From assembly GCA_965204495.1 (NCBI GenBank), contig OZ241989.1:1504312-1568311 (forward strand): a stretch of DNA of 64,000 nucleotides, read 5' to 3'. The notes beneath the pieces were generated by a model. The model saw nothing but the letters and a program-made list of their open reading frames with translations, was not told the DNA's origin and did not search any database. The DNA is from Candidatus Hopanoidivoransaceae bacterium. Its GTDB lineage: Bacteria > Actinomycetota > Acidimicrobiia > Acidimicrobiales > Hopanoidiivorantaceae. The translations under genes were made by a program, and so were the position numbers. This document shows positions 5,747 through 54,005 of this stretch, in pieces (position 1 is the first letter of the stretch; each line of letters starts with the position of its first letter).

Positions 5747-8654
5747 AGGTGATGCCTGCGTGGCAGCTGTTTATGCTGGCGTCTGTGCCTATTGTGTTTT
5801 CCAAGGCAGAGGGTATTTCTGCTTGGCGGTTTCCTTTGAGGCAGACGATGCCTGCGGAAGAGCGGCAGAATGCTACGGATTTGTCGGCTTCCGTGATGCT
5901 GTCTGCTGTGCTGTGGCGGAGAGGGGCGAATCCGAGCATCGAGCAGATCATGTTCTGCCTGTCCAATGCCGGTGCTGAGGTCTGCGGGCGGGCGGAGATC
6001 GCTATGGAGACTCGCCCTCTGAGAGCGTGCCCGCCTGAGGATGTGTAGGGGATGGTGAAGGCGGCCGTGCCGGCGGCGTCTCCTGCGGTGATTTTGTAGC
6101 TGCAGCCTGTGTTGGTGATGCGGGTGATTTTGGCATCGCGGTCGGCGGCGTTCGCGCAGGTTATGTCGTAGGCGCCGTCTGTGGCGTAGCTGGCAGCGTT
6201 TATGGTCATAGTGCCGCCAGCGGTCATAGACAGATCGCTGGGCGCGGTGAAGACGATTGTGGAAGCAGCGCCTATTTCTATGCTTATGACGCCGTTTTGG
6301 GTGTGTCCGCCTGAAGAGGTGTAAGGCACGGTGAAAGTCGCTGTGCCTGTGGCGCCGGTGGGCGTGACGGAGAAATCGCAGATTTTGGGATTCGGGCGCG
6401 CAACGGTTATCTTGCTGTCCACGCTGATGGCGTTGCCGCAGGTGATGTAGTAGTTGCCGTCTGAGGCGTAGTCGCTGGCATTCAAAGCGAGGGTGCGGTT
6501 GGTTCCCAGTTTGAGTCCTGTGGGCGCGGTGTAGGAGATGGTGGAAGCCGGGCCTATTTCTATGGTGAAGACTCCGCTTGTGGAGCCGCCGCCGGCGGAG
6601 GTGTAGGGCAAGGTGAAGCTGGCAATGCCTTGAGCGCCTGTAGGCGTGACGGTGAAGACGCAATTCCTCCGGCTGAGGCTGATCTTGGAATCCACATCTG
6701 TAGTAGTTCTGCAGGAGATTCTGTAGCCGCCGTCGGACGCGTAATCCCGACCATTGATCGTGAGAGTCCGGTTCGTGGCCAGCTGAAATTCGTCGGGCTC
6801 AGAGAAGACGAGAACAGAAGGCGGCGGAGGGCTGATTCGGATGGAAATCATGCCGCCTGTGGTGTATCCGCCTGAGGAAATATAAGGAACTCTGAAGGCG
6901 GCAATGCCGACCGAGGAACCCGCTCGGATCGTATAGCTGCAGCCTTTGCGCGTTACGGTGATTTTGCTGTCTATGCGGCGGGTGTCAAGACAGAAGAGAG
7001 CGAGGTCGCTGTCTGCCAGCGTTGCGTACGAAGAGGCGTCTATGGTGATGCTTCGGTTTGGTGCTACAGCTAGGGCTATAGGAGGGGTAAAATTGATGGC
7101 GCCATTGATGTTGTCCGTCAGCTTGGCTCCTATAGCAATATTGACAGATGCTGTGGCCCCGCCGGAGGAGGAGTAGCCGACTGCGAGGTTCAAGTCTCTT
7201 GACGAGTAGCTGGGACCGGATTGAAATTTAATGATGCACCCGTTGCGACTGACTTTTAGGGTAAAAGCAGCTGCAGCTCCTGAAAATCTGTGGCTTGTGC
7301 ATGTGATGTCGTAGTCGCCGTCTGTGGCATAGCGGGCGGCGTCTATAGTTATGACTCGGTCTCTTCGGATCAGAAATTGAGGATTGCTGGCCAAGGTGAT
7401 GCTGGAGGCGGTGCCGATGGTTAGGGAGACCACGCCGCTGTGAGTGTCGCCGCCGGAGGAGGTGTAGGGCACGGTGAAAGTGGCGATGCCAGCAGTGCCG
7501 CCTGCGGTTATTGAGACAGAGCAGCCGGCGTCGTTGATGCTGTCGATGGGAGCATGGGATCGGATGTTGGCGATGAGAGCATGGGATTGTCTGATGGTTC
7601 CGCACGAAATAGTATCGCTGCCGTCTGAAGCATAATCGGCAGCATTGATCCGTATAGTGCTGTAGATGCCCACAGACAGACCCGCAGGCGCGGTATAGAC
7701 GATGTGGGAGGCAACTATTGTGATGTCTATCCTGTCCGTGCGAGCGCTGCCGCTTGCAGAAGTGTAGGGCACGCTGAAGCTGGCTCTGCCTGTGGTGTTG
7801 CCTGCGGTTATGTTATAGACGCAGCCGTTGCGGGAGCTGACGGTGATCTTGGAATCCACAGCAGTCGCATCGCCGCAGAACACAGGATAGCCGCCTTGAT
7901 CGTAGGCGTAGCTGCCCGCGTCAATCGTGATAGTGCCGCCCGTGCGCACTCTGAGATTGGATACGCGCTGATAGAAAAGGACGGACGAAGGGCCGATAAT
8001 GAGAGGAATGACGCCTGTCTGCTCGTCTCCGCCAGAGGAGTGGTAGCGCACCGTCACTGTGGCCGCGCCTTGAGTAGAGCCGGCCCACACCCTGAAGCTG
8101 CAGCCAGTTGCGGTTACCGAGGCGAGGAGTCGGTGCCGGTTAGCCGGGTTGGCATTGAAGCTGCATGTTATGGCATAGTCGCCGTCTGTGGCATAGCCGG
8201 AGACATCAATTATTTTAGATCTGCCTGTACCTATGGGTATGCTCGCTGGAGCGGTGAAAGTGATATCGGAAGCAGCGGTGATAGCTATCGTGAAGGTCGC
8301 GCTGTGAGTGTCGCCGCCAGAAGAAGTCAAAAGGGTGGTGAAGGTGGCATTGCCCGTCGGGGCAGTGGCTGAGGCATTGACGGTGAAAAAGCAGCTGTTG
8401 GCGGCATTTTGGGCAACGGTGATCCTGGTGGAATCCACAGCAGTGGGAGCTCCGCAAGTGAAAGTGTTGGAGCCGTCTCTGGCAAAGCCTGCAGCGTAAA
8501 TGATGTAGCCTGTTCGCCCTGCTGGAATCGTGAGGTTGGTAGGGGCGGTGAAAACGATGTTGGAAGTCTGCGCTGATGCTTGGTCGGCAAATGAGGCGGA
8601 TGCCGTAAATAGCACCGATCCGAACAAAGCCAGAGCTACCAGAACTTTTGGCAT
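5745..8654 (-). CDS. secreted protein with ~9 tandem Ig-like/adhesin-type repeats (~95 aa each)
   Basis: Signal peptide MPKVLVALALFGSVLFTASASFA. It is followed by a reiterated unit: TFTAP..L....G.T.TI.A..YA.DG.Y.ITCG....VDSKITV.....C.F.VT..GA.G.A.FTVPYTSSGG.T..GVISI.IG. The last ~85 aa are non-repeat. Confidence 0.75.
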   Translation of the reverse strand: MPKVLVALALFGSVLFTASASFADQASAQTSNIVFTAPTNLTIPAGRTGYIIYAAGFARDGSNTFTCGAPTAVDSTRITVAQNAANSCFFTVNASATAPTGNATFTTLLTSSGGDTHSATFTIAITAASDITFTAPASIPIGTGRSKIIDVSGYATDGDYAITCSFNANPANRHRLLASVTATGCSFRVWAGSTQGAATVTVRYHSSGGDEQTGVIPLIIGPSSVLFYQRVSNLRVRTGGTITIDAGSYAYDQGGYPVFCGDATAVDSKITVSSRNGCVYNITAGNTTGRASFSVPYTSASGSARTDRIDITIVASHIVYTAPAGLSVGIYSTIRINAADYASDGSDTISCGTIRQSHALIANIRSHAPIDSINDAGCSVSITAGGTAGIATFTVPYTSSGGDTHSGVVSLTIGTASSITLASNPQFLIRRDRVITIDAARYATDGDYDITCTSHRFSGAAAAFTLKVSRNGCIIKFQSGPSYSSRDLNLAVGYSSSGGATASVNIAIGAKLTDNINGAINFTPPIALAVAPNRSITIDASSYATLADSDLALFCLDTRRIDSKITVTRKGCSYTIRAGSSVGIAAFRVPYISSGGYTTGGMISIRISPPPPSVLVFSEPDEFQLATNRTLTINGRDYASDGGYRISCRTTTDVDSKISLSRRNCVFTVTPTGAQGIASFTLPYTSAGGGSTSGVFTIEIGPASTISYTAPTGLKLGTNRTLALNASDYASDGNYYITCGNAISVDSKITVARPNPKICDFSVTPTGATGTATFTVPYTSSGGHTQNGVISIEIGAASTIVFTAPSDLSMTAGGTMTINAASYATDGAYDITCANAADRDAKITRITNTGCSYKITAGDAAGTAAFTIPYTSSGGHALRGRVSIAISARPQTSAPALDRQNMICSMLGFAPLRHSTADSITEADKSVAFCRSSAGIVCLKGNRQAEIPSALENTIGTDASINSCHAGIT
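6000..8560 (-). repeat. tandem coding repeats (~285 nt period) inside the Ig-like repeat gene
   Basis: The peptide unit recurs about nine times in the 5745-8654 translation. Confidence 0.8.
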
Positions 8655-44146: not shown

Positions 44147-44270
44147 TCGACTGCCTTTCTATTGCGGATATCGCTATTCTAGCATGAAAAATCCTAGTCG
44201 CCAACATTATCCGCCAGCCCAGTCCGCATCACCGCCCAAGAACTCGGCAAAAAATATTTCCGAGAATGAC

Positions 44271-44299
44271 TTGACAAACACGATCAAACATGCTATAGT
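44271..44299 (+). promoter_or_regulatory. near-consensus promoter P1 (TTGACA-17 nt-TATAGT), ATG 7 nt downstream
   Basis: cTTGACAaacacgatcaaacatgcTATAGTgatctatATG. It is paralogous to the P2 block at 50019-50068 on the opposite strand. Confidence 0.7.
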
Positions 44300-44306
44300 G
44301 ATCTAT

Positions 44307-44630
44307 ATGAACATGAGAAGACTGCCAAGTTTGCCTGCAGGCGTTGGTCTGATGGCACCCAGTCTCGCCCCTGTCCAGCAAACGGCTACTCCTGGGCATA
44401 ACCTGCGGAGGGGGGCTGATTGCTCATTAGGAGGGCAGTCTAGAAGTTTCCCTTGCGCCGCGTCGCTGCTTGGGTTTCTGGCGCAATCTGTGGGGGTCTT
44501 GTTTAGAGGGAGGGTTTGCAGTTTTGTTGCGGGGTGTGTTTGGCGACAGGGCAGAGAATCTTTGTCGCTTGCGAGGCGAAGTGATGGGGATATGAGTGTT
44601 TGCCTAAGTTGGCATTTGGAGGTGCTGTAA
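44307..44630 (+). CDS. putative leaderless 107-aa Cys/Arg-rich ORF
   Basis: The ATG lies at leaderless distance from P1, and the stop overlaps the next start (TAATG). The first 22 codons align without gaps to the N-terminus of the 49494-50024 ORF (shared P7, L9, P10, P18, L20, P22). The composition is otherwise unconvincing. Confidence 0.4.
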   Translation: MNMRRLPSLPAGVGLMAPSLAPVQQTATPGHNLRRGADCSLGGQSRSFPCAASLLGFLAQSVGVLFRGRVCSFVAGCVWRQGRESLSLARRSDGDMSVCLSWHLEVL

Positions 44631-46204
44631 TGGAACTTTCGGACATTTTCAGCAGTGAAACTCAGGTATCTTTTGTTTTTCCATTTAAGTTAAGTCTGTC
44701 GTGTGTCATTTTTGAAGGCAAGGACGAGGAAGTCCAATTTGACTATGACAGGTGGAAGAGTCGTGTCATTTGCAAACTTATTTGCCACAAAAATTCTTCG
44801 GATGGCTGTTATTTGTTTTCTTGGGATGAAGTTGCCGAAGATCTTTCGGATTCTTCTAGCTGTGAATTTTTGCCCAACTGTTTTCTGAAAGCCAAAATTG
44901 AGGATTCTGCCAAATTAGGATGGCTTAATGATTGTTTAAGAGATTTCAAATTTAATGGACTTGGCTTAGAAGTAAGTTGTGTTGAGATGAAGCTTTGGGA
45001 GTTCGGCTTCGGCTCAATCAAAATAGTCTCGAAGGTCATTTCGGATTTGTTAGATGGCGAACAAAAATCATTGAGTGAGGTACTCGATGATTTTCAAACT
45101 ATGCTTAATGAAAAATTTTTGAAAATTTTGGAACCCAAAATAGATTACGAAATTATTTGGAGATGCAATTTTCAAAGAAAGGATGATCCAAAAGAAATTA
45201 CAAGTTTTGCGGAGATTGCTCTTAAGCATAAAAAGAAAACTTTTCAACAAAAAAACAAGGATTACACAAAGTATAATTTTGATTTGTTGGAGCCTATATC
45301 CACTGTTCAAAGTAAAATAATAGACGAAAACGATGATAATGTAATTAATATGCAATCCTCGGGTTTGCGTAGAATAGAAACTAAAGATGAAATTGAAGGG
45401 AACTCATTTAAGATTTACATTTCAAATAACAGGAAGTTATTAGTTTCAATTTTTCAACAGAATTCAGAAGAATATGACAAAATTAAATTTAATGAAATTA
45501 TAGAAACAGTTATTGTTCACAAAGAATTTGGTGTATATCTAAATAAAATTGGCCAAACTTATGAACCCTTTTTGTCAACTTATTCTGATAAAATAGCGAA
45601 AGAAAGTATACATAATAGTAAATTGTGGCCTGACTGGCACGCATTTGCTTGGAATGTCTTGCAAGAAAAAAAGGGCTTAGATACAATTTTGACTGAGATA
45701 CAGGAAGTATCAAGAATAAGCATAATAATGTTTAACACTCTTGATAGTCAAGCAAATAGCTATCTGTCATATTCAAATTTGAGTACTCTCAAAATTGCAA
45801 ATAAAATTTTTGACCTGAATAGAATACGTGACAGCAACAATGAATTATTTTCACTCGTTAATAGATATTATGCAAAAATTAGCAATCATAATGAAAAGCT
45901 ATCTTTGTTTGCTGAATCAGTAATTGCATTTTATTTTCCTACATCATTGTCATTCATTGCTTTGATTCTAAGTTTCGCGGCAATTGATGGTGCTTTTGGT
46001 GAAACATTGAGTAATGTCATACGTTCCACTTTCCCATGGAATCTCTCTATATTGCCGGTCATTGCAGTAATTGTATTATCTTTGCTGGTATCATGCGTTG
46101 AGCGTGCTGAAAAGAGAGAAATTGAAAATGCTAGGAAGCCAGGAAGTGTCTTGGAGACACATCAGTTATGGATCGAAATGCTTGAAACTGAGAAAACAAT
46201 GTGA
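44630..46204 (+). CDS. hypothetical membrane-anchored protein (524 aa), AT-rich gene
   Basis: GGAGG lies 7 nt before ATG 44630 (MELSDIF). The large soluble N-terminal region is followed by two C-terminal TM helices (SVIAFYFPTSLSFIALILSFAAI, LSILPVIAVIVLSLLVSCV). Sampled lines are ~30% G+C. Confidence 0.7.
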   Translation: MELSDIFSSETQVSFVFPFKLSLSCVIFEGKDEEVQFDYDRWKSRVICKLICHKNSSDGCYLFSWDEVAEDLSDSSSCEFLPNCFLKAKIEDSAKLGWLNDCLRDFKFNGLGLEVSCVEMKLWEFGFGSIKIVSKVISDLLDGEQKSLSEVLDDFQTMLNEKFLKILEPKIDYEIIWRCNFQRKDDPKEITSFAEIALKHKKKTFQQKNKDYTKYNFDLLEPISTVQSKIIDENDDNVINMQSSGLRRIETKDEIEGNSFKIYISNNRKLLVSIFQQNSEEYDKIKFNEIIETVIVHKEFGVYLNKIGQTYEPFLSTYSDKIAKESIHNSKLWPDWHAFAWNVLQEKKGLDTILTEIQEVSRISIIMFNTLDSQANSYLSYSNLSTLKIANKIFDLNRIRDSNNELFSLVNRYYAKISNHNEKLSLFAESVIAFYFPTSLSFIALILSFAAIDGAFGETLSNVIRSTFPWNLSILPVIAVIVLSLLVSCVERAEKREIENARKPGSVLETHQLWIEMLETEKTM

Positions 46205-46314
46205 CAGAAACTTGCATTCTGGAATCGATAAAAATAAACAAAATTATATCAACTTAAACTGCCATTTTAATAAAAATATGTCATCAAAATGGGCATACAA
46301 ATAGCAAAAATCCA

Positions 46315-48234
46315 ATGATTATTAAAACTATAAAATATCTAAACAGCGTCTTAGCTTTAACACTAGTAGTGTTATTATTTGCTGCGGCTTGTTCATCTGG
46401 TGCCTCTGACGGTGCTGATAGCACCCTGCCAGTGGAGTCTGATATGAGCGCGACAACCGCAGACGGAGTTACATCATTTTCAAGAGTCTCGACTCCTACA
46501 ACTGCTGCAGAGAGCAGTGGGGTAGAGGTTTCTGTCGTTGTGCCGTTCACATCAGGTAACGGTTCTGGATATGTGACTGTTTCTGGCGATAGTTCGCCTG
46601 TGGCAGAGTGGTTCGCTAATCAGCCAGGTGAGGTTTCGCTGGATTTGGTTGACGCTGATGTTGCCGATCCTGCCTCTGTGGTTGAGGAGATGATAAGTTT
46701 CTGGTATTTCCAAGATGGCGATAGCGGCGATGTTCCGCCGTCAATCTATGTTTCAGGCGGCGGCGAAATCACCGACAGCCTGGGCACAAGCTATGTCGTA
46801 GAAGGCGAGCTTTTGCCGCCAGCACCGGTCGCGGAAGCTGCAACTACTACGACCAGCACGACTACCACTTCTACTGCACCAGCGACTACTGCTACAACCT
46901 CAACGACTACTTCCGGTGCGTCAACTGAACAATCTGAGCCGCCAAGTACAACAACTTCGACTGAGCCAGCAATAACCACAACAACTACTACTGTTGTGGA
47001 GTCGCCGGTGACATTGCAGGTTCAAGTATTAAATGGCAGCGGTGTGGCTGGAGCAGCCGGTCGGCTTACTGCTAAGCTTGCCGAAGCTGGCTATACCGTT
47101 TTGCCGGCAGGTAACGCACCTGAAAGATACGCCACTTCTGCCGTCTACTATCAGGATGGCTGGCAGGACAGAGCCGAGGAGATACTGGCAGCATCTGAAC
47201 TAGAAGAGATAGATCAGGTTTCTGCTATGCCGCAACAGTTCGTATCGCCAGACGCTGCTGTTGTTGTGCTTATCGGCAGAGACACCGCTCCTGTTGCAGT
47301 TAGGAGCAGCGGGCCTGCGCCGATTACAAGGTATCGGCTAGGACCAGAAGATGTTCCGATTAATGTGCCGAAAGATAGGTTCGATCCAAGAGCTTTTGGC
47401 GCATCGCTTCCTGTGAATGTGCGTGACCGACCGGAAGATGTGGCAAGGTCAAGCAATTTACTCAAAAGAGCCGCTTATTGTTTCGAGGATGAGATTGCGT
47501 ATTTTGAGGACAACTGCTTGGAAAACGATCTGCCAGCAATCTGGGCCGAGATAGAGCAGATATTTGACAGGCTCGGTTTTACTTCTAAGAACGTTTGCGG
47601 CTCTGTAGCTGACGGCAGCTTCACAGACGGCATAGTGCACACAGCAGAATGGAACCCAGCAACCGGAAACTACAGCGGCGACCTGATTTTCACAACAGAC
47701 AGGTTTATAGAAATAAACCGCCAAGCAGGAATAGATGTGCAGCGGATAAACCCGCAAGCGAACCTAGATTTCTATCTCAGAAAAGCCGCGCAATCAGCAC
47801 ACGACAGACTCAGATTCCAAGAAATCATGAAAGAAACAAGTGCCAGTCATCTCATACTATGCGCATCATGGGTAACAGAATCAGGGTCTATGCCATGGGC
47901 AGCCTACTCAGTAGCGAACACATTCGCCGCTCCGGTAAGAGAATTTTTATCACAAGGCACATACCACATCAAAGAAATATCCAGGAACGGAAACCTCGCC
48001 CATGTTATTGTGTGCCATCCGACAATAAGAGAACGCCATATTCTCTTGCACTGGCACCAAACTGGATATCGCGCAATACAGCTAGCATACAGCACTCATA
48101 CTGGCTGCCAAGGAACTTTCGACGGCGAAACATCAATCTCAGAAGACACGAACAGAGCGGAAGACACCATCAGATACACCTTCGGCCAGCAAGTCTTCGC
48201 CGCCGCCGACCTGCAGGGGTTTCCTAGAGCCTGA
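46315..48234 (+). CDS. secreted/lipoprotein with T-rich linker, LytR_C domain and unknown C-terminal domain
   Basis: Signal LALTLVVLLFAAACSSG, then a TTTTSTTTTSTAPATTATTSTTT linker. VTLQVQVLNGSGVAGAAGRLTAKLAEAGYTV matches the LytR_C pattern. The last ~300 aa are unassigned. Confidence 0.7.
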   Translation: MIIKTIKYLNSVLALTLVVLLFAAACSSGASDGADSTLPVESDMSATTADGVTSFSRVSTPTTAAESSGVEVSVVVPFTSGNGSGYVTVSGDSSPVAEWFANQPGEVSLDLVDADVADPASVVEEMISFWYFQDGDSGDVPPSIYVSGGGEITDSLGTSYVVEGELLPPAPVAEAATTTTSTTTTSTAPATTATTSTTTSGASTEQSEPPSTTTSTEPAITTTTTTVVESPVTLQVQVLNGSGVAGAAGRLTAKLAEAGYTVLPAGNAPERYATSAVYYQDGWQDRAEEILAASELEEIDQVSAMPQQFVSPDAAVVVLIGRDTAPVAVRSSGPAPITRYRLGPEDVPINVPKDRFDPRAFGASLPVNVRDRPEDVARSSNLLKRAAYCFEDEIAYFEDNCLENDLPAIWAEIEQIFDRLGFTSKNVCGSVADGSFTDGIVHTAEWNPATGNYSGDLIFTTDRFIEINRQAGIDVQRINPQANLDFYLRKAAQSAHDRLRFQEIMKETSASHLILCASWVTESGSMPWAAYSVANTFAAPVREFLSQGTYHIKEISRNGNLAHVIVCHPTIRERHILLHWHQTGYRAIQLAYSTHTGCQGTFDGETSISEDTNRAEDTIRYTFGQQVFAAADLQGFPRA

Positions 48235-48259
48235 TTTAAGGAAAAAGAAGATTTTACTT

Positions 48260-49039
48260 TTAGCTTGACAAGACACTTATAAATTGGTCAGGGTTAGACC
48301 ATAAAGACACCACAGAAAGATCTTCAACGAGATTAAAGTCTTCAGGTTTCCAAATATCCGTGTTGTCATCAAATAGTGAAATAAACTGCTGCTTAGACTC
48401 TCCGTTGGCTAAGTGGCGAATATCATACCACCCAGCTATTGTATGTTCTACAATCCTTCGAGTAGCTGCAGTGCTTTCGGTTGCTAAAATCTGAATAAGA
48501 GATTTTTGTGATTCTGTATTAACGCTAAAGTCCACATTCCAAAACTTGCCAGATTTCCCCTCAATATTTTTTGACCGGGAAAAATTAATCTTTTTCTCAT
48601 CCATGAAATCAGCAACTTCGTCAGAAATCGAAGAAACAGCTCTTGTTCTGAAAGTGAACCAAAGATCTGAGATTCGTATAGATGCATGAGCAACTTTTGT
48701 AATGGTTTCAGCCAACGAATCTCCTGAGCGACAGCGAGCCAAAAGCATTTCTCGATAGAACTCTACGCCATGAGTGACGCAAGTATCTTGAATTAGGTAA
48801 TTCTGCTTATAGGAACGCCGCTGTGACAAAGAATGCATAGACAGCCAATTTGTTGTTTCGGCGAAATCTGTCACTATCAGCTCATCTCCGTTTTCCGTGG
48901 GCTTACAGAAAATGTCAATGACTTCCCCATCAGGGTAAAGGTAAGGTGTGCGAACACGAAACCGCCCATTTTGTTCAGTGACGGCGAATTGTTGTCCCAA
49001 ATCGGCCAACAGCGTCTCGAAGCGTTTGCTGAGGTTCAT
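48260..49039 (-). CDS. DUF1828/DUF1829-like protein (259 aa)
   Basis: FRVRTPYLYPDGEVIDIFCKPTENGDELIVTDFAETTNWL fits the DUF1828 pattern. The later GKSGKFWNVDFSV segment fits DUF1829. The start ATG overlaps the upstream stop (ATGA). Confidence 0.6.
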   Translation of the reverse strand: MNLSKRFETLLADLGQQFAVTEQNGRFRVRTPYLYPDGEVIDIFCKPTENGDELIVTDFAETTNWLSMHSLSQRRSYKQNYLIQDTCVTHGVEFYREMLLARCRSGDSLAETITKVAHASIRISDLWFTFRTRAVSSISDEVADFMDEKKINFSRSKNIEGKSGKFWNVDFSVNTESQKSLIQILATESTAATRRIVEHTIAGWYDIRHLANGESKQQFISLFDDNTDIWKPEDFNLVEDLSVVSLWSNPDQFISVLSS

Positions 49040-49491
49040 ATGAATAACTCCTCTTGTCGTGGTAATGGTGGTCCTAGTATACCTGTATGTGTTATATTGG
49101 CCAATTCGCAAAATTGTTGCCACACGGCAACAGGGTTGGAAATTTCAGCCGTGATCTCTTCAGGAACACGAGCTACTTTGTCTCTGAATTCTTCGGTCCA
49201 TTCGTGGAGGTGTGTTTCTCCTACCATATTGCAATGAGGATTGTGGTGCTCTTTGCCTAAGTCAACCCCAAATATGCGTCCATGTTTTTTATGAACAATA
49301 AGGTAGTTGAGTTTGCTAACGTCGGGATTGAAAGTAGCATGGAGAAACAGAGGCCATTCTGACACTATATCGACACGGAATTCGCTTACGGAACGATTAT
49401 TCTCCCTTCTGCCCCACTCAATGTTCCCATTGATGTATTTTGGCTCTCTAATGATTGAGCCGAATTCATGCTTGGATAACTGGGCAGTCAT
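49036..49491 (-). CDS. hypothetical protein (151 aa), His-rich motif GKEHHNPHCNMVGETHLHEW
   Basis: Tightly coupled to both neighbours (2-nt gap upstream, 4-nt overlap downstream). AT-rich. Confidence 0.6.
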   Translation of the reverse strand: MTAQLSKHEFGSIIREPKYINGNIEWGRRENNRSVSEFRVDIVSEWPLFLHATFNPDVSKLNYLIVHKKHGRIFGVDLGKEHHNPHCNMVGETHLHEWTEEFRDKVARVPEEITAEISNPVAVWQQFCELANITHTGILGPPLPRQEELFI

Positions 49492-49493
49492 AA

Positions 49494-50024
49494 TCAGATG
49501 GCGAGTCTCAGGTGCCCTTTACCGCTAACCGATCGGACACTACTTGCTTTTGAAGGGTGAGCGGAGTTTTCGATAATTGCATCCAGAAAACTGACTGGAG
49601 CTAGAAGGTACTCTCTGTCTACAGCTTTGATAGCATATCGTCTCATGGTATTACAGCATTCGGGTTGCCTCATGCTTTTGACTATATAAGAAGGACACTG
49701 CCTTGTCAAGTGCACATTTGGGAAAATTGTTTCGCGCCGTCGTTGTCCTCTTTGACTGAATGGACATGTTGCAAGGCTAGCACATGGCGCGTGCGTGAGC
49801 ATGGGAGGCAAATGTGTTGCCGCTTTGTGATAATAGGCGGTTCGGACGAGATTGCCGAGAGATCTGTTTTGGCAAAAGCCGAGTACGCCAGCCACGAATC
49901 GGATGGCTGTTGTGCTGCTGCAGGTGCCTGCCATGCTGTCTACTGCAGCACAGTCTGCCGGCGTGAGCCGAGGCACTGTGCGACTGTCGCTTGTCGGCAG
50001 CATCGGAGCGGTTTTCTCGGTCAT
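49494..50024 (-). CDS. hypothetical Cys-rich ORF (176 aa); possibly only its last 59 codons (from ATG 49673) are a separate gene
   Basis: ATG 50024 lies 6 nt after the P2 -10 box. An internal consensus promoter (P3) places the in-frame ATG 49673 7 nt after its -10. Confidence 0.4.
   Translation of the reverse strand: MTEKTAPMLPTSDSRTVPRLTPADCAAVDSMAGTCSSTTAIRFVAGVLGFCQNRSLGNLVRTAYYHKAATHLPPMLTHAPCASLATCPFSQRGQRRRETIFPNVHLTRQCPSYIVKSMRQPECCNTMRRYAIKAVDREYLLAPVSFLDAIIENSAHPSKASSVRSVSGKGHLRLAI
49681..49709 (-). promoter_or_regulatory. near-consensus promoter P3 (TTGACA-17-TATAGT) inside the 176-aa ORF
   Basis: The minus strand reads cacTTGACAaggcagtgtccttcttaTATAGTcaaaagcATG. Confidence 0.6.
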
Positions 50025-50030
50025 TTGCCC

Positions 50031-50059
50031 ATCGTAGCATGTTGCGCGGTGTTTGTCAA
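50031..50059 (-). promoter_or_regulatory. promoter P2 (TTGACA-17-TACGAT), ATG 6 nt downstream
   Basis: The minus strand reads gagaatgacTTGACAaacaccgcgcaacatgcTACGATgggcaaATG. The first 20 nt are identical to the P1 block. Confidence 0.65.
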
Positions 50060-50136
50060 GTCATTCTCTAAAAAATTTTTGGCTTGTGCTGCTGTGCTGG
50101 AATCCGGGTTGCGGTCGCCGTTAAAGTAGCAGACCT

Positions 50137-51885
50137 ATGGGGTTTGCAGCTTTCGCGAAAATTTTCAGATACGGTATCCTAGCCGCCGTCGCACTGGCGA
50201 CAGCCTTCGCTGCTGTGCTCTGGCTGACCGCCACCCCAGCCTCAGCACTTGGCGGAGGCGGCGGGGTTGGCGACACGGAGAAGAATTGGGATACTGACAA
50301 TTTGCGGTTCGGGAATTATTCTGCTAAGAGTTTTGCTATACCGCATCTGAAGCCTAGCGAGCGTGGTTCTCATGAGGCTTGCGGGGCTGGTGTGGTGGAC
50401 GGGTTTTTTCAGCTTGATACTGATGTGCGCAACGATCTGCCGATTTTGGATGTGACGGTTCCAGCCAGCGGCGCGCCGTCTGTGGCGCACAGAGCGGCTG
50501 CGACTTGTTCGGAGTTCGTGACCGAGCAGGTTATCGCTCGTAACGTCGGTCGCGGTAACGGCGGTTATTGGCTTGACAGTCAAGGTATTCTGCGGCGAGG
50601 GTTGCCGTCTCATACCACAGGCAGGAATTACAGGACGCAGAGATGGTCGCCCAGCAGCCAGACATATCAGAGCGGCAGGTTCAGGATAGACGCTGAGACG
50701 ACTTCTGGCAGCTACGGTTTCGACGGCTATGCCGCGCGGATTGACTATTACACAGGCAGCGCAAGTTTAGCTAACGCGAAATTCAGGGTTGCGGGTAATG
50801 TCAGCTTTGCTGTTCCGCACAGCATTGAGCTAGTCGTGAACACCAAGAAGTCTGGCAGCGTATACACTTGGACACCTGTTTTTCCTGCTTCTGCCAGAGT
50901 GACCGCAGCTACGGCTGTGCATCTGCAAGCCGGAGATTATCTGAGTTTGTGCCCGTCTGGTTTTCATCCTAGGGGCGAAGACGCGGTGCGCAGGATAGGC
51001 AACGGCACAGGTAGAACCTTGTCGTCGCTGGATGAGGCAGGCGAAACCCGGCTGGCTGACCAGTATTGGTGCCGCTCCGATGTTCGCAAGCAAATATGGT
51101 ACGAACCAGAGTTCACAAGCAGAACTTGCGGCCCGGACCCACGACCGACATGTCCTGCTGGTGTGACTGTGCCAACCAAAGAATTCCAGGCTTATTGTCG
51201 TGTGGGCTGTTTTTTCACAGCCACAGATCTGGACACGACATCGATGCAAAGAGGCACAACTGCCATACAGGGCACGCAGAAGAATACCTGCTCTTATATG
51301 TATCCGATACCGCAATGCACAGAGAACGGAACTAAAAAGCCTATAGCCAGAGCCAAGCTGGACAGCCTGTATGTCGCTCCTATAAACAGCCCAGGGGTGT
51401 TTCCTTTCGCTTCTGACGGCAGCACAGCTTGCGACACTAATCCGCAATGCACCGCGAACGGAGCCAAACGCGATATGACTGACGCTGAGCTTCAAGCCTA
51501 CAGAACAGCCAGAGGCGCTAGTTTTGTTCCTGCCAGTGACGCCAGCACGCCTTGCACGGCAGCAGTCGCAGCTAGCGCGGCTGCCGATTTCACTGCCGAT
51601 GCTTGCGTGACAGCGATACTGGAAATTTACGAGAACCGACCTAAAGGTTTCAACGCCGAACCTGGTGTGCGCGCAGATCATCGCACAGTGACAGCTGACA
51701 CGGCTAATCCTGTTTTCGATTTGGATGTCGCTGCTGCGCATCCTGGAACAGCCAGCCCGCCTAGAGCGACCAGTGATCCTTCGGGTTGCGCGGACGGCTC
51801 TGAAGCAAGAGCCGACCATGGAACAGCCGACTCTGCGGCACGCAAGAACACAGGAGCGGAAGACGCCGAGGCTGCTATCTCATAG
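50137..51885 (+). CDS. secreted Cys-rich hypothetical protein (582 aa)
   Basis: Signal peptide ILAAVALATAFAAVLWLTATPASALG and many paired Cys residues. No family recognised. Confidence 0.6.
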   Translation: MGFAAFAKIFRYGILAAVALATAFAAVLWLTATPASALGGGGGVGDTEKNWDTDNLRFGNYSAKSFAIPHLKPSERGSHEACGAGVVDGFFQLDTDVRNDLPILDVTVPASGAPSVAHRAAATCSEFVTEQVIARNVGRGNGGYWLDSQGILRRGLPSHTTGRNYRTQRWSPSSQTYQSGRFRIDAETTSGSYGFDGYAARIDYYTGSASLANAKFRVAGNVSFAVPHSIELVVNTKKSGSVYTWTPVFPASARVTAATAVHLQAGDYLSLCPSGFHPRGEDAVRRIGNGTGRTLSSLDEAGETRLADQYWCRSDVRKQIWYEPEFTSRTCGPDPRPTCPAGVTVPTKEFQAYCRVGCFFTATDLDTTSMQRGTTAIQGTQKNTCSYMYPIPQCTENGTKKPIARAKLDSLYVAPINSPGVFPFASDGSTACDTNPQCTANGAKRDMTDAELQAYRTARGASFVPASDASTPCTAAVAASAAADFTADACVTAILEIYENRPKGFNAEPGVRADHRTVTADTANPVFDLDVAAAHPGTASPPRATSDPSGCADGSEARADHGTADSAARKNTGAEDAEAAIS

Positions 51886-52065
51886 ATGTCGCTGCCGACG
51901 GCAAAGTCACGGTGCAAACAGCAAGAATGGACTTCGAAACAGGCAGCTAAGCTGTGGGTGAAACCTACAGCCGGCTGTTCTCTGGCGACAGGAACTGCAA
52001 AATCAAAAGAACACGCACAGACGTCAGTGCGGTGTCTGCAGCCACAGCGAGCGGGTTTTACTGGT

Positions 52066-52275
52066 ATGCTGAATGCCATGTCAGCGGAATCAGTCATACA
52101 GCGCGACCCAGAAATTATGGGTGGAACGCCGACCTTCGCAGGTACGCGTGTTCAAATCAGGTCTTTGCTGGACGAGTTGGCATCCGGAACCTCAATGGAG
52201 GAATTCATAGAGCTGTATCCCGATGTGTCACGTCAGCAGGTCAAGGCGGCACTGCTGGAATTGTGCCCGCAGTAG
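52066..52275 (+). CDS. DUF433 domain protein (antitoxin-like)
   Basis: DPEIMGGTPTFAGTRVQIRSLLDELASGTSMEEFIELYPDVSRQQVKAALLEL matches the DUF433 pattern. The start is ATG 52066 or 52078. Confidence 0.75.
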   Translation: MLNAMSAESVIQRDPEIMGGTPTFAGTRVQIRSLLDELASGTSMEEFIELYPDVSRQQVKAALLELCPQ

Positions 52276-52288
52276 TCGCGTATATCTT

Positions 52289-52678
52289 GTGCCAACTTAT
52301 CCTCGGCGGGTTTTACTAGACGCTTGTCTCTCTCCGCAACTCAGCCAACTTTTCCCAGAAGATTTCGAAGTAGCCGATGCCAGAGCCAAAGGCTGGCACA
52401 AAATGAAGAACGGGGAGTTGACCGAAACAGCAGCGGAGAGCGGGTACGAGGCTATCGTCACCAAAGATCGTGCCTTCTATAGAAAAAGAGGGGTGCAACC
52501 GTTCCCGTTCCCTGTCTTCTTGATCATTCCGTCAGAAGGTTATGACACAGTGTCATATCACAAGCAAGTAATGCCTGCAATAATTGGCGATATGCTGAGC
52601 GGCGTAGAAAAACAGCACTACTCGTATGGAGAGGAGTTGCCGGGCTTGGAATCTGTGCATAAGACTATTTCTCCCTGA
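52289..52678 (+). CDS. DUF5615 (PIN-like) protein, partner of DUF433
   Basis: VLLDACLSPQLSQLF...ELTETAAESGYEAIVTKDRAF fits the DUF5615 pattern. The GTG start is inferred just after the DUF433 stop. Confidence 0.6.
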   Translation: MPTYPRRVLLDACLSPQLSQLFPEDFEVADARAKGWHKMKNGELTETAAESGYEAIVTKDRAFYRKRGVQPFPFPVFLIIPSEGYDTVSYHKQVMPAIIGDMLSGVEKQHYSYGEELPGLESVHKTISP

Positions 52679-52721
52679 TGCGGAAGAGATTTCCCGAAGT
52701 GCCGTATGTCCCAATCAGCTT

Positions 52722-54005
52722 ATGACTTCTAGCAAATCTTTATTCAGCCGGGCTCAGGGCGTTATTCCGGGCGGGGTGAACTCGCCGGTGCGGGCTTTCG
52801 GATCGGTGGGGGGGACTCCTTATTTTGTGTCGCGTGCCGAGGGGTCGCACATCTGGGATGCCGACAGCAATCGCTACCTTGACTATGTGATGAGCTACGG
52901 CCCGCTCATTTTGGGGCACGCTCATCCCGCCGTGGTAGATGCAGTAGCCGAGGCAGCTGCGGGCGGAACGAGCTATGGCGCGCCCACCGAGCGGGAAGTG
53001 CTGCTGGCGGAAGAACTCTGCGAGCGAATCCCGGGGATGGAAATGGTGCGACTGGTCTCCAGCGGCACCGAGGCCACGATGACGGCAGTGCGACTGGCTA
53101 GGGGGGCGACAGGGCGCGACATAGTGGTGAAGTTCGCAGGCTGCTATCACGGACACGCCGACTTTCTGCTAGCCGCCGGCGGCAGCGGGGTGGCAAATCA
53201 AGGTCTCTCAGGCTGCGACGGCGTAACGGCGAGCGCGGTGGCCGACACAATAGTCGCCCCGTATAACGAGGTGCCTGAACTGGACGAGCGAGTGGCGGCG
53301 GTGATTGTAGAACCTGTAGCAGCCAACATGGGGTTGGTCGCCCCCGAGCCAGATTTTCTGCCCCAGCTGCGAGATGCCTGCAGCAAAGCTGGCGCGCTGC
53401 TGATCTTTGACGAGGTGATCACAGGTTTCCGCCTGTGCCGAGGCGGAGCGGCCGAGTGGTTCGGTGTGCAGCCCGACCTTTGGTGCTTCGGCAAGGTAAT
53501 CGGCGGCGGACTGCCCGTAGGAGCTTTCGGCGGCAAGCGAGAGATCATGGAGCATCTAGCCCCCCTAGGCGGCGTCTACCAAGCAGGCACGCTCTCGGGC
53601 AACCCACTAGCCACCGCAGCAGGCCTTGCCACGCTAGCCGAACTAGACGTCCGAGCCTACGAAACCCTAGCCAACACCACCGCCCGCCTAGCAAAAGGCA
53701 TGGCTCAAGCCATAACCGAGGCAGGCATCGCCGCCGTACTGCCCCAAGTGGGCCCCCTGCTCGGGTTGTTTTTCTGCGACACCTCGCCGAAGTCTTTTGA
53801 CGAAGCCGACAAAGCCGCCCAGAACGGCGTCTATCCTCGCTTTTTCCACGCCATGCTCAAAGAAGGCATAGCCCTGGCCCCAGGCCCCTACGAGATCCTC
53901 TTCCCCAGTCTCGCCCACACCGAAGAAGACATCGCCCAAAGCATAAGCGCAGCCAGCAAAGCAGCCCTAGCCGCCGACGAAGCCGCAGCCGCAGCTCAGA
54001 CCTGA
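52722..54005 (+). CDS. hemL: glutamate-1-semialdehyde 2,1-aminomutase
   Basis: GVIPGGVNSPVRAF, FDEVITGFR. Start set at MTSSKSLF (ATG 52722). Confidence 0.95.
   Translation: MTSSKSLFSRAQGVIPGGVNSPVRAFGSVGGTPYFVSRAEGSHIWDADSNRYLDYVMSYGPLILGHAHPAVVDAVAEAAAGGTSYGAPTEREVLLAEELCERIPGMEMVRLVSSGTEATMTAVRLARGATGRDIVVKFAGCYHGHADFLLAAGGSGVANQGLSGCDGVTASAVADTIVAPYNEVPELDERVAAVIVEPVAANMGLVAPEPDFLPQLRDACSKAGALLIFDEVITGFRLCRGGAAEWFGVQPDLWCFGKVIGGGLPVGAFGGKREIMEHLAPLGGVYQAGTLSGNPLATAAGLATLAELDVRAYETLANTTARLAKGMAQAITEAGIAAVLPQVGPLLGLFFCDTSPKSFDEADKAAQNGVYPRFFHAMLKEGIALAPGPYEILFPSLAHTEEDIAQSISAASKAALAADEAAAAAQT

Follow-up and report, generated by a model that had tools for sequence, protein, structure and literature searches.

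The DNA considered here is a stretch of 64,000 nucleotides from Candidatus Hopanoidivoransaceae bacterium (contig OZ241989.1, positions 1,504,312 to 1,568,311), referred to below as the window and numbered from its first letter. Its minus strand carries three consecutive open reading frames (ORFs): ORF1 (49494-50024, 176 codons), gene A (49036-49491, 151 codons) and gene B (48260-49039, 259 amino acids). Genes A and B are a further instance of the candidate defence system PDC-M24, whereas ORF1 is an open frame that extends over a promoter and leader region. ORF1 terminates with TGA at 49496-49494, and the ATG of gene A (49491) begins after a gap of 2 nucleotides. The TGA of gene A shares the tetranucleotide ATGA with the ATG of gene B (49039), the overlap lying at 49036-49039. 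Gene A has no Shine-Dalgarno sequence of its own. For gene B, the Shine-Dalgarno sequence AAGAGGAG can be read at 49048-49055 on the minus strand, 8 nucleotides 5′ of the ATG and within the 3′ end of gene A. A GTG at 49123 would offer gene B an earlier start; since its homologues all have about 259 amino acids and their alignment begins at residue 1, the start is placed at 49039.

Two near-consensus sigma-70-type promoters are found on the same strand. P1 (50031-50059; TTGACA-17-TACGAT with an extended -10 TG) scores 10/12, and P2 (49681-49709; TTGACA-17-TATAGT), which is situated within ORF1 and proximal to A-B, scores 11/12. In the region as a whole, a promoter scan finds 9 promoter-like sites, versus 3.5 +/- 2.0 in shuffled sequences. 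The G+C content is 0.39-0.46 across 48200-49400 versus 0.62-0.65 in the flanks, and the low-GC islet to which the genes belong spans roughly 44400-52700. With 44% G+C in the acquired segment as compared to 63% in the host, the A-B pair is horizontally acquired. The sole defence- or toxin-antitoxin-like neighbour is a pair of Pfam families, DUF433 and DUF5615 (PIN-like), at 51886-52678. A preliminary description of the locus had reported the three frames with their 2-nucleotide gap and ATGA overlap, an AT-rich operon with strong promoters of its own and a toxin-antitoxin-like pair nearby, and all of this is borne out by the sequence.

Both proteins belong to a family that has already been catalogued. 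Protein B corresponds to PADLOC PDC-M24B (PDLC04540; E = 3.2e-92) over residues 7-257 of 259, and protein A to PDC-M24A (PDLC04533; E = 5.7e-51) over residues 5-150 of 151 and profile positions 2-150 of 151. In Pfam, protein B is a DUF1828 protein (PF08861; E = 5.8e-9, 36.6 bits with a gathering threshold of 22; residues 31-122), and protein A is a DUF6978 protein (PF22398; E = 5.4e-13, 49.8 bits with a gathering threshold of 29.6; residues 5-133, profile positions 1-133 of 133). PHROG matches to both proteins are present but weaker, and NCBIfam gives no match for either. DUF1829 usually accompanies DUF1828 in Pfam annotation, and the last gene had been described as carrying the patterns of both. 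The DUF1828 match is found in all 32 family members of B tested as well, but DUF1829 (PF08862) is not detected in protein B at E <= 0.1, nor in any of the 32 members at E <= 10. It had also been stated that neither the first nor the middle product belongs to a recognised family; this holds for ORF1, which has no match in four libraries, but not for protein A.

The family is large, with 782 homologues of B at E < 1e-5, all of about 259 amino acids and about 50-58% identical to the window copy, and 1617 homologues of A in a profile search. Co-occurrence was assessed in 80 loci from GTDB species representatives, which include Acidobacteriota, Pseudomonadota, Latescibacterota, Spirochaetota, Planctomycetota, Chloroflexota and Nitrospirota. 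By phmmer, A is intact in 47 of these loci and fragmentary in 18, some of the fragmentary copies being possibly explained by assembly frameshifts, and of the 15 others, 3 have weaker remnants detected by a profile search. In about 65 of the 80, the two genes share one strand with A directly 5′ of B, and the A stop codon mostly falls within 0-6 nucleotides of the B start. A-B is therefore a conserved two-gene unit. Outside chromosomes the subfamily is rare: A and B each match a single IMG/VR contig, one archaeal virus is found among GenBank phages, and plasmids give no match. It is therefore mainly chromosomal.

Within this family, the window pair is the most divergent branch found, with at most 58% (B) and 69% (A) identity to any other member. 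In window A, the conserved acidic patch EDEDHS (residues 28-33) is replaced by RRENNRS, and in window B the conserved residues R67, H172, R174, R178 and R190 are changed (R67S, H172S, R174N, R178Q, R190T). These substitutions may reflect a co-evolving, compensatory A-B interface or AT-driven drift, AT-bias being a confounding factor; in the former case, the charge covariation might place A residues 29-33 against an Arg-rich face of B (R162, R165, R174, R178, R190). The ORFs of the pair are intact, all strictly invariant residues are kept and the pair is 100% conserved between two sampled strains. A related contig, L090, carries at 6637-7147 a truncated PDC-M24B of 145 amino acids, with 90% DNA identity to window positions 48566-49077, and its A is almost entirely gone, so that the PDC-M24 module is both gained and decayed within the lineage.

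At the family level, the association with known defence genes is pronounced. A subunit of a type I restriction-modification (R-M) system is found no more than 6 kb away in 56 of the 80 loci (70%), counted locus by locus with the R-M genes of L094 as seeds, and in about 34 of the 80 the pair is preceded by hsdM/S and followed by hsdR, all on one strand, the usual order being hsdM-hsdS-A-B-hsdR. The B stop often overlaps the hsdR start by 4 nucleotides (for example in L013, L018, L051, L058, L078 and L094), and around the closest relative of B the order is hsdM-HicA-hsdS-DUF433-A-B-hsdR, with all junctions overlapping. Among the 106 nearest large neighbours there are 16 REase_I (type I restriction) and 14 Specificity_I matches; others correspond to N6_Mtase, AAA_21 (AbiEii-like), DarT/Macro, Schlafen-AlbA_2, M78 peptidase, GmrSD and PIN. 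DUF433, often together with DUF5615 (PIN-like), occurs near A-B in 11 of the 80 loci by raw count; it is placed directly 5′ of A in L094 (5263-5490), directly 5′ of B in L037 (5189-5648) and 2.4 kb away in the window. A database protein of 389 amino acids, P0114, is annotated with both DUF5615 and DUF1828. No R-M subunit lies nearby in 24 of the 80 loci, and a distant pair on an IMG/VR contig (B 29% identical) sits between XRE-type repressors and an ImmA-like peptidase with an integrase, a typical prophage lysogeny-module site for defence genes. Judging from these 24 loci and the prophage example, autonomy of A-B is common.

The window itself is different. Here A-B is present as a solo copy, within a small acquired islet flanked by genes of haem biosynthesis, and no defence island surrounds it. 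The rest of the window ORFs are housekeeping genes (encoding ALAD, HemD, glutamate-1-semialdehyde aminomutase, dehydrogenases, Hsp70 and others), together with the one toxin-antitoxin pair. An association with defence genes is present in the family, but the "typical defence island" of the preliminary description does not describe the window, since no other PADLOC-detectable gene occurs in the 64 kb. Taken together, the defence association of A-B is strong at the family level and the local defence-island argument weak. The earlier proposal of an uncharacterised defence-type module stands for the last two genes, which are coupled, acquired and members of an R-M-associated family; the module is not an unrecognised family, because it is already catalogued as PDC-M24. 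As regards the islet borders, no tRNA is found in the window and no recombinase family among its ORFs. Compared with L002, the islet has 2 mismatches in 44554-52934 (8.4 kb), and the adjacent hemL has 55 mismatches in about 1 kb from 52935. A near-identical islet beside a diverged hemL suggests that the islet has recently been transferred or has undergone a sweep, or that hemL has recombined.

The AlphaFold2 model of protein B (predicted local distance difference test score, pLDDT, 85.8) contains two alpha-beta-beta-beta-alpha-beta units, and the order of secondary structure in both halves fits the alpha-beta-beta-beta-alpha-beta core of PD-(D/E)xK nucleases. Protein B has no sequence relative in the PDB. 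In a Foldseek comparison with the PDB, it has 15 matches at E <= 1e-3, every one of them a nuclease-bearing structure (Can2, Cdn1, VC1899/Card1-type, Bax1 and R2 RLE). Just above this threshold are AF1548 (E = 1.1e-3, with a root-mean-square deviation (rmsd) of 3.4 Å over 119 columns) and BstEII, and MspJI and McrC are weaker. The Foldseek probability is 1.00 for Can2, Cdn1, VC1899, Bax1, R2 RLE and AF1548; the template modelling (TM) scores are low (0.26-0.34) and the global rmsd is large. Acidic residues are invariant in both halves, namely D37, D42, D58 and E61 in one, and E141, D170, D224 and D225 in the other. By this model, at least one half of protein B is assigned to the PD-(D/E)xK fold class.

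Protein A is mostly beta in its structural model (pLDDT 85.7; predicted TM score 0.82), and this model has no significant fold match in PDB or BFVD, the best Foldseek E-value against the PDB being 0.24. A PDB sequence relative is likewise absent at E <= 10. The His-rich string GKEHHNPHCNMVGETHLHEW, which had been singled out in the preliminary description as a potential metal or nuclease-type site, occupies residues 79-98. Family alignments give the invariant residues as G79-x-x-H82-H83-N84-P85-x-C87 ... G91-x-x-H94-x-H96-x-W98-x-E100 ... D104. In the distant pair of the viral contig L091 (B 29% identical to window B), A keeps H82, N84, P85, H94, H96 and W98, and H83 and C87 are lost. Given the invariance of the cluster across the family, it is plausible that protein A has a metal-binding or catalytic site. 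Identity as an HNH or His-Me finger was considered on account of the (D/E)HHNP ... HxH string and rejected; the resemblance is by eye only, and no Pfam, PDB or Foldseek match supports it.

ORF1 has a quite different character. Its product matches no family in Pfam, PADLOC, PHROGs or NCBIfam, and searches of the 80 A-B loci with phmmer, tblastn, nhmmer and blastn retrieve no relative. In a HMMER search of 1.84 billion representatives, 3 real relatives appear besides ORF1 itself, all confined to amino acids 1-109. They derive from metagenome contigs of related organisms which share the flanking LytR_C gene and a homologue of the 50137-51885 gene, and the cargo behind the leader consists of genes for 282 and 87 amino acids (L083-L086, L088-L090) or for 250 and 51 amino acids (L087), none of which belongs to a Pfam or PADLOC family. 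In the closest A-B relative, L093 (76.6% DNA identity), homology to the window begins only at 49495, 4 nucleotides before the A ATG, and the sequence further upstream is unrelated. In the conserved core at 49706-49921 (about 80% identity), substitutions are distributed as 15/13/16 over the codon positions and the translated identity is equal (0.61-0.67) in all six frames. The composition of the product is rich in Cys, Arg and Thr and junk-like. The absence of families, the few relatives, the lack of codon periodicity and the six-frame identity rule out ORF1 as a conserved protein gene. As 0 of the 80 loci carry a relative and its own relatives precede unrelated cargo, ORF1 is no part of the A-B module. 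The three-gene unit proposed in the preliminary description is therefore not sustained, since the trio does not co-occur.

ORF1 is instead a mosaic of at least three modules (50079-49928, 49931-49706 and 49705-49494), each with its own distribution. The first (49928-50079, minus strand) comprises P1 and a 5′ leader; by blastn, it recurs upstream of other genes in relatives (L087 2600-2879, 83.6%; L088 6455-6606, 75%), and a partial inverted copy is present at 44247-44295 of the window. The second, or core (49706-49931, minus strand), has about 80% identity in relatives by blastn and alignment, ends at the -35 box of P2 and precedes the 282-amino-acid and 87-amino-acid genes in relatives, not A-B. 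The third is a window-specific tail, unshared over 49705-49494, for which an exhaustive HMMER search gives no homologue. From 49673 to 49494 on the minus strand, it holds a possible leaderless ORF of 59 codons (MRQPECC...LRLAI), which would end 2 nucleotides before the A ATG. Two DNA pattern scans of JGI metagenome contigs return no further leader homologues; the lineage is seen only in ENA and Logan assemblies.

The frame of ORF1 is nevertheless open beyond chance. Dinucleotide shuffles give P = 0.0015 for the window, <0.0005 for L083 and 0.012 for L086, and the non-homologous tails are open at P of about 0.02 (window) and 0.04. The stop codon of the frame abuts the cargo start in three lineages, with a 2-nucleotide gap in the window, a GTGA overlap in L083 and a 5-nucleotide gap in L087. 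Same-frame ATGs follow both -10 boxes closely: the one at 50024 is the 7th nucleotide after that of P1, and the one at 49673 lies 7-8 nucleotides after that of P2. This spacing suggests that leaderless transcripts may arise from P1 and P2. Frames of this type are probably translated leaders in which the act of translation matters and the sequence does not.

The explanation that best accommodates these observations, and which is held to be somewhat better than an even bet, is that A-B is a two-protein nuclease-based defence module, here a solo PDC-M24 copy, and that ORF1 is a lineage-specific expression leader. In this scheme, A-B would be transcribed from P2 and probably from P1 too. The ORF1 segment would contribute the two promoters and a long open frame, probably translated from leaderless transcripts and ending at the A start codon, and the same kind of leader would be placed by the host lineage before different acquired cargo. 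The ATGA overlap would fix the stoichiometry of A and B. Protein B would be the effector, a metal-dependent nuclease with restriction-endonuclease-like (PD-(D/E)xK-type) domains and invariant acidic clusters, and protein A its small beta-rich partner, the His/Asn cluster of which is probably a metal site. Protein A would bind B, either holding it inactive or sensing infection and licensing it; nucleic acid would then be cleaved and the infection aborted or restricted. In most genomes, the pair between hsdS and hsdR would serve as a second line of defence in the type I R-M operon, and in the window it would act autonomously.

Several points weigh against this explanation. In the conserved strands of protein B, no conserved Lys occupies the canonical (D/E)xK position, and because no such lysine is evident, B could be a non-catalytic protein with a nuclease fold. 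The role of protein A is a guess, since neither structure nor sequence links it to a protein of known function, and the catalytic subunit could be A and not B. In about 12 of the 80 loci, B has no detectable A and is found, for example, directly after hsdS or after an ImmA/IrrE-helix-turn-helix gene, so that B may not strictly need A. The window copy deviates from the other members at 15 of 56 (A) and 33 of 127 (B) positions that are >=93% conserved, which makes the activity of this copy uncertain. The 49 other ORFs of the window give no PADLOC match at 1e-6, and no R-M system is present among them. A literature search, finally, found no experimental report on the function of PDC-M24, and likewise none for DUF6978 and DUF1828.

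It is unlikely that A-B is chiefly a toxin-antitoxin or addiction module, in which a nuclease toxin, B, would be paired with A as antitoxin, and which would stabilise R-M operons and islets without acting against phages. A small upstream gene overlapping a larger downstream gene by 4 nucleotides is consistent with such a module, as are the nuclease-like fold of B, the toxin-antitoxin genes (HicA, DUF433/DUF5615, PIN) that are frequent neighbours and the decayed copies, namely the truncated B of L090 and the fragmentary A of about 18 loci. Conversely, no fold typical of DNA-binding proteins or antitoxins can be recognised in protein A, whose invariant His cluster has the look of an enzymatic or metal-binding site. 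About 12 loci have an intact-looking B but no A, which would not be expected of a toxin left unneutralised, and the strong and specific placement between hsdS and hsdR is the pattern of embedded defence genes. That R-M subunits occur in 70% of loci, with the B stop often overlapping the hsdR start, would also agree with A-B being an accessory of type I R-M, either a PrrC-like guard released upon an anti-restriction block or a modulator of HsdR; the window copy, with its many deviating positions and no R-M partner in 64 kb, would then be stranded and possibly a non-functional orphan. This seems a doubtful account of the locus, as the window pair is intact, keeps its invariant residues and a strong promoter of its own and is unchanged between the two sampled strains, and the loci without an R-M subunit, including the prophage example, point the same way.

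The two remaining alternatives concern ORF1 and are less credible still. A genuine three-protein operon, with the 176-amino-acid product of ORF1 or the 59-amino-acid product of the P2 transcript as third component, would account for a frame open far beyond chance in the window and in L083, for stops that adjoin the cargo start in the window, L083 and L087, for ATGs placed 7 nucleotides after both -10 boxes as in leaderless mRNAs and for the lack of a Shine-Dalgarno sequence at gene A, and ORF1 is annotated by gene callers. Such an operon is nonetheless very improbable given the 80 loci without an ORF1 homologue, the homology of L093 that begins only 4 nucleotides before the A ATG, the three real relatives restricted to amino acids 1-109 and placed before unrelated cargo, the even substitutions over codon positions with alike identity in six frames, the lack of a family in four libraries, the junk-like composition and the mosaic of three separately distributed modules. 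The ORF1 region could also encode a structured regulatory RNA (a riboswitch, a small RNA or similar) controlling A-B, as the core lies between the two promoters, shows no codon periodicity and is about 80% identical to L083 versus 70-75% for flanking coding genes. There is no Rfam match for the leader at E <= 1, however, its folding energy is no better than that of shuffles (z = -0.57, +0.67) and the RNAalifold covariation term is unfavourable (+3.89) in a comparison of only 3 independent sequences; moreover, the leader region is not associated with A-B elsewhere. A regulatory RNA is accordingly given hardly any weight.

Further features of the islet concern the surroundings of the two-gene module. 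The 18-nucleotide promoter core GAATGACTTGACAAACAC occurs only twice in the window, the second promoter copy lying at 44271-44299. Two convergent islet operons begin with inverted copies of the promoter module (44247-44299 on the plus strand and 50031-50083 on the minus strand; 81.6% over 49 nucleotides). With the homologue of the 50137 gene as reference, the whole segment bounded by the promoter copies has the opposite orientation in L083 and L088, and L087 is collinear with the window; the segment was probably inverted by recombination between the two copies. The second operon, on the plus strand, follows the layout of the A-B operon and begins with a leaderless-looking, junk-like ORF of 107 codons (44307-44630), the TAA of which overlaps the ATG (TAATG) of a gene for 524 amino acids (44630-46204). 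This gene, with 27-35% G+C, encodes a protein whose C-terminus is hydrophobic. Searches of Pfam, PADLOC, PHROG and NCBIfam yield no family at E < 0.01, the only PADLOC signal being a weak one to a Cas9 model (E = 0.013), and the gene may be another acquired effector.

On the other side of gene B, an element of about 70 nucleotides (48164-48237, plus strand), detected by blastn, forms the 3′ end of the LytR_C gene and the right-hand boundary of the cargo slot. It is present in 1 copy in the window and in 2-7 copies at cassette junctions in relatives (L083 2922-3150; 7 copies in L088). Some related contigs with the repeated element also carry IS1595-family transposases, and no integrase is seen. 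The element resembles an att-like target or a scar left by recombination at the cargo slot. Beside the slot, the gene at 50137-51885 (plus strand) encodes a protein of 582 amino acids with a hydrophobic N-terminus, for which no Pfam, PADLOC or NCBIfam family is found; it is conserved in the same place in all related contigs, with 69-90% DNA identity. A more speculative proposal, to which little probability is attached, is that the host lineage possesses a LytR_C-adjacent cargo slot in which AT-rich genes are swapped between the promoter-leader and the att-like repeat. This would be an integron-like platform without a recognisable integrase, the cargo of which would be expressed through a strong promoter and a drifting leaderless ORF that runs up to its start codon, possibly in order to translate or de-silence xenogeneic DNA. 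As part of the same proposal, PDC-M24 would be a stand-alone nuclease defence and protein A a new metal-binding fold.

The unit is thus corrected from three genes to two, and ORF1 is no protein component of it. A solo copy with its own promoter argues that the pair, compact at 1.2 kb, can work without an R-M system. Two structural leads emerge, the restriction-endonuclease-like fold of B and the fold of A, which has no known relative and bears an invariant His/Asn cluster. If validated, A-B would add a new pairing of a small protein and a nuclease to bacterial immunity. The leader and cassette architecture is the least expected feature, and it constitutes a separate lead on the expression of acquired AT-rich genes in a high-GC bacterium.

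Among known systems, type II toxin-antitoxin modules resemble A-B in the translational coupling of a small upstream gene to a larger, nuclease-like downstream gene, and they differ in that protein A has no known antitoxin or DNA-binding fold, has an invariant His/Asn cluster, and is missing beside B in about 15% of loci. With effectors of the PrrC/RloC type, which are embedded in type I R-M operons, the A-B family shares a position between R-M subunit genes, which suggests an R-M-linked back-up defence. A-B, however, has no ABC-ATPase or anticodon-nuclease domain and consists of two proteins and not one, and the window copy has no R-M neighbour. HipAD / DS-6 is a validated defence system that combines a HipA-like kinase with a DUF3037-DUF1829 protein, DS-6B (DefensePredictor, Science 2026, PMC13092281), and this differing architecture is the only one found to tie DUF1829 to defence. 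In contrast, B has no detectable DUF1829 and no DUF3037, and its partner is a DUF6978 protein and not a kinase.

Closer structural likeness is shown by the nucleases retrieved with the model of B. It shares a restriction-endonuclease-like core with Can2, Card1 (VC1899), Cdn1, Bax1, R2 RLE, AF1548 and type II restriction endonucleases (Foldseek E 3e-5 to 1e-3, probability about 1.0), and, as in Can2, a nuclease-like domain and a second domain are joined in one chain of roughly 260 amino acids. Unlike the Can2-type and other PD-(D/E)xK enzymes, B has no sequence similarity to them, no CARF (Rossmann-like) domain evident from its secondary structure and no identifiable (D/E)xK lysine, and cyclic-oligonucleotide signalling genes are not found near A-B. 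The closest counterpart is PDC-M24 itself, one of a set of 145 candidates recognised by their embedding in BREX, DISARM or type I R-M operons ("guilt-by-embedding"; Payne et al., bioRxiv 10.1101/2024.01.29.577857). The window copy departs from these in not being embedded in R-M, BREX or DISARM, standing alone behind a lineage-specific promoter and leader. What it shares with PDC-M24 is that A and B match both hidden Markov models over their full length, the two genes are adjacent, co-oriented and overlapping, and the wider A-B family is embedded in type I R-M operons, as in the discovery of the candidates.

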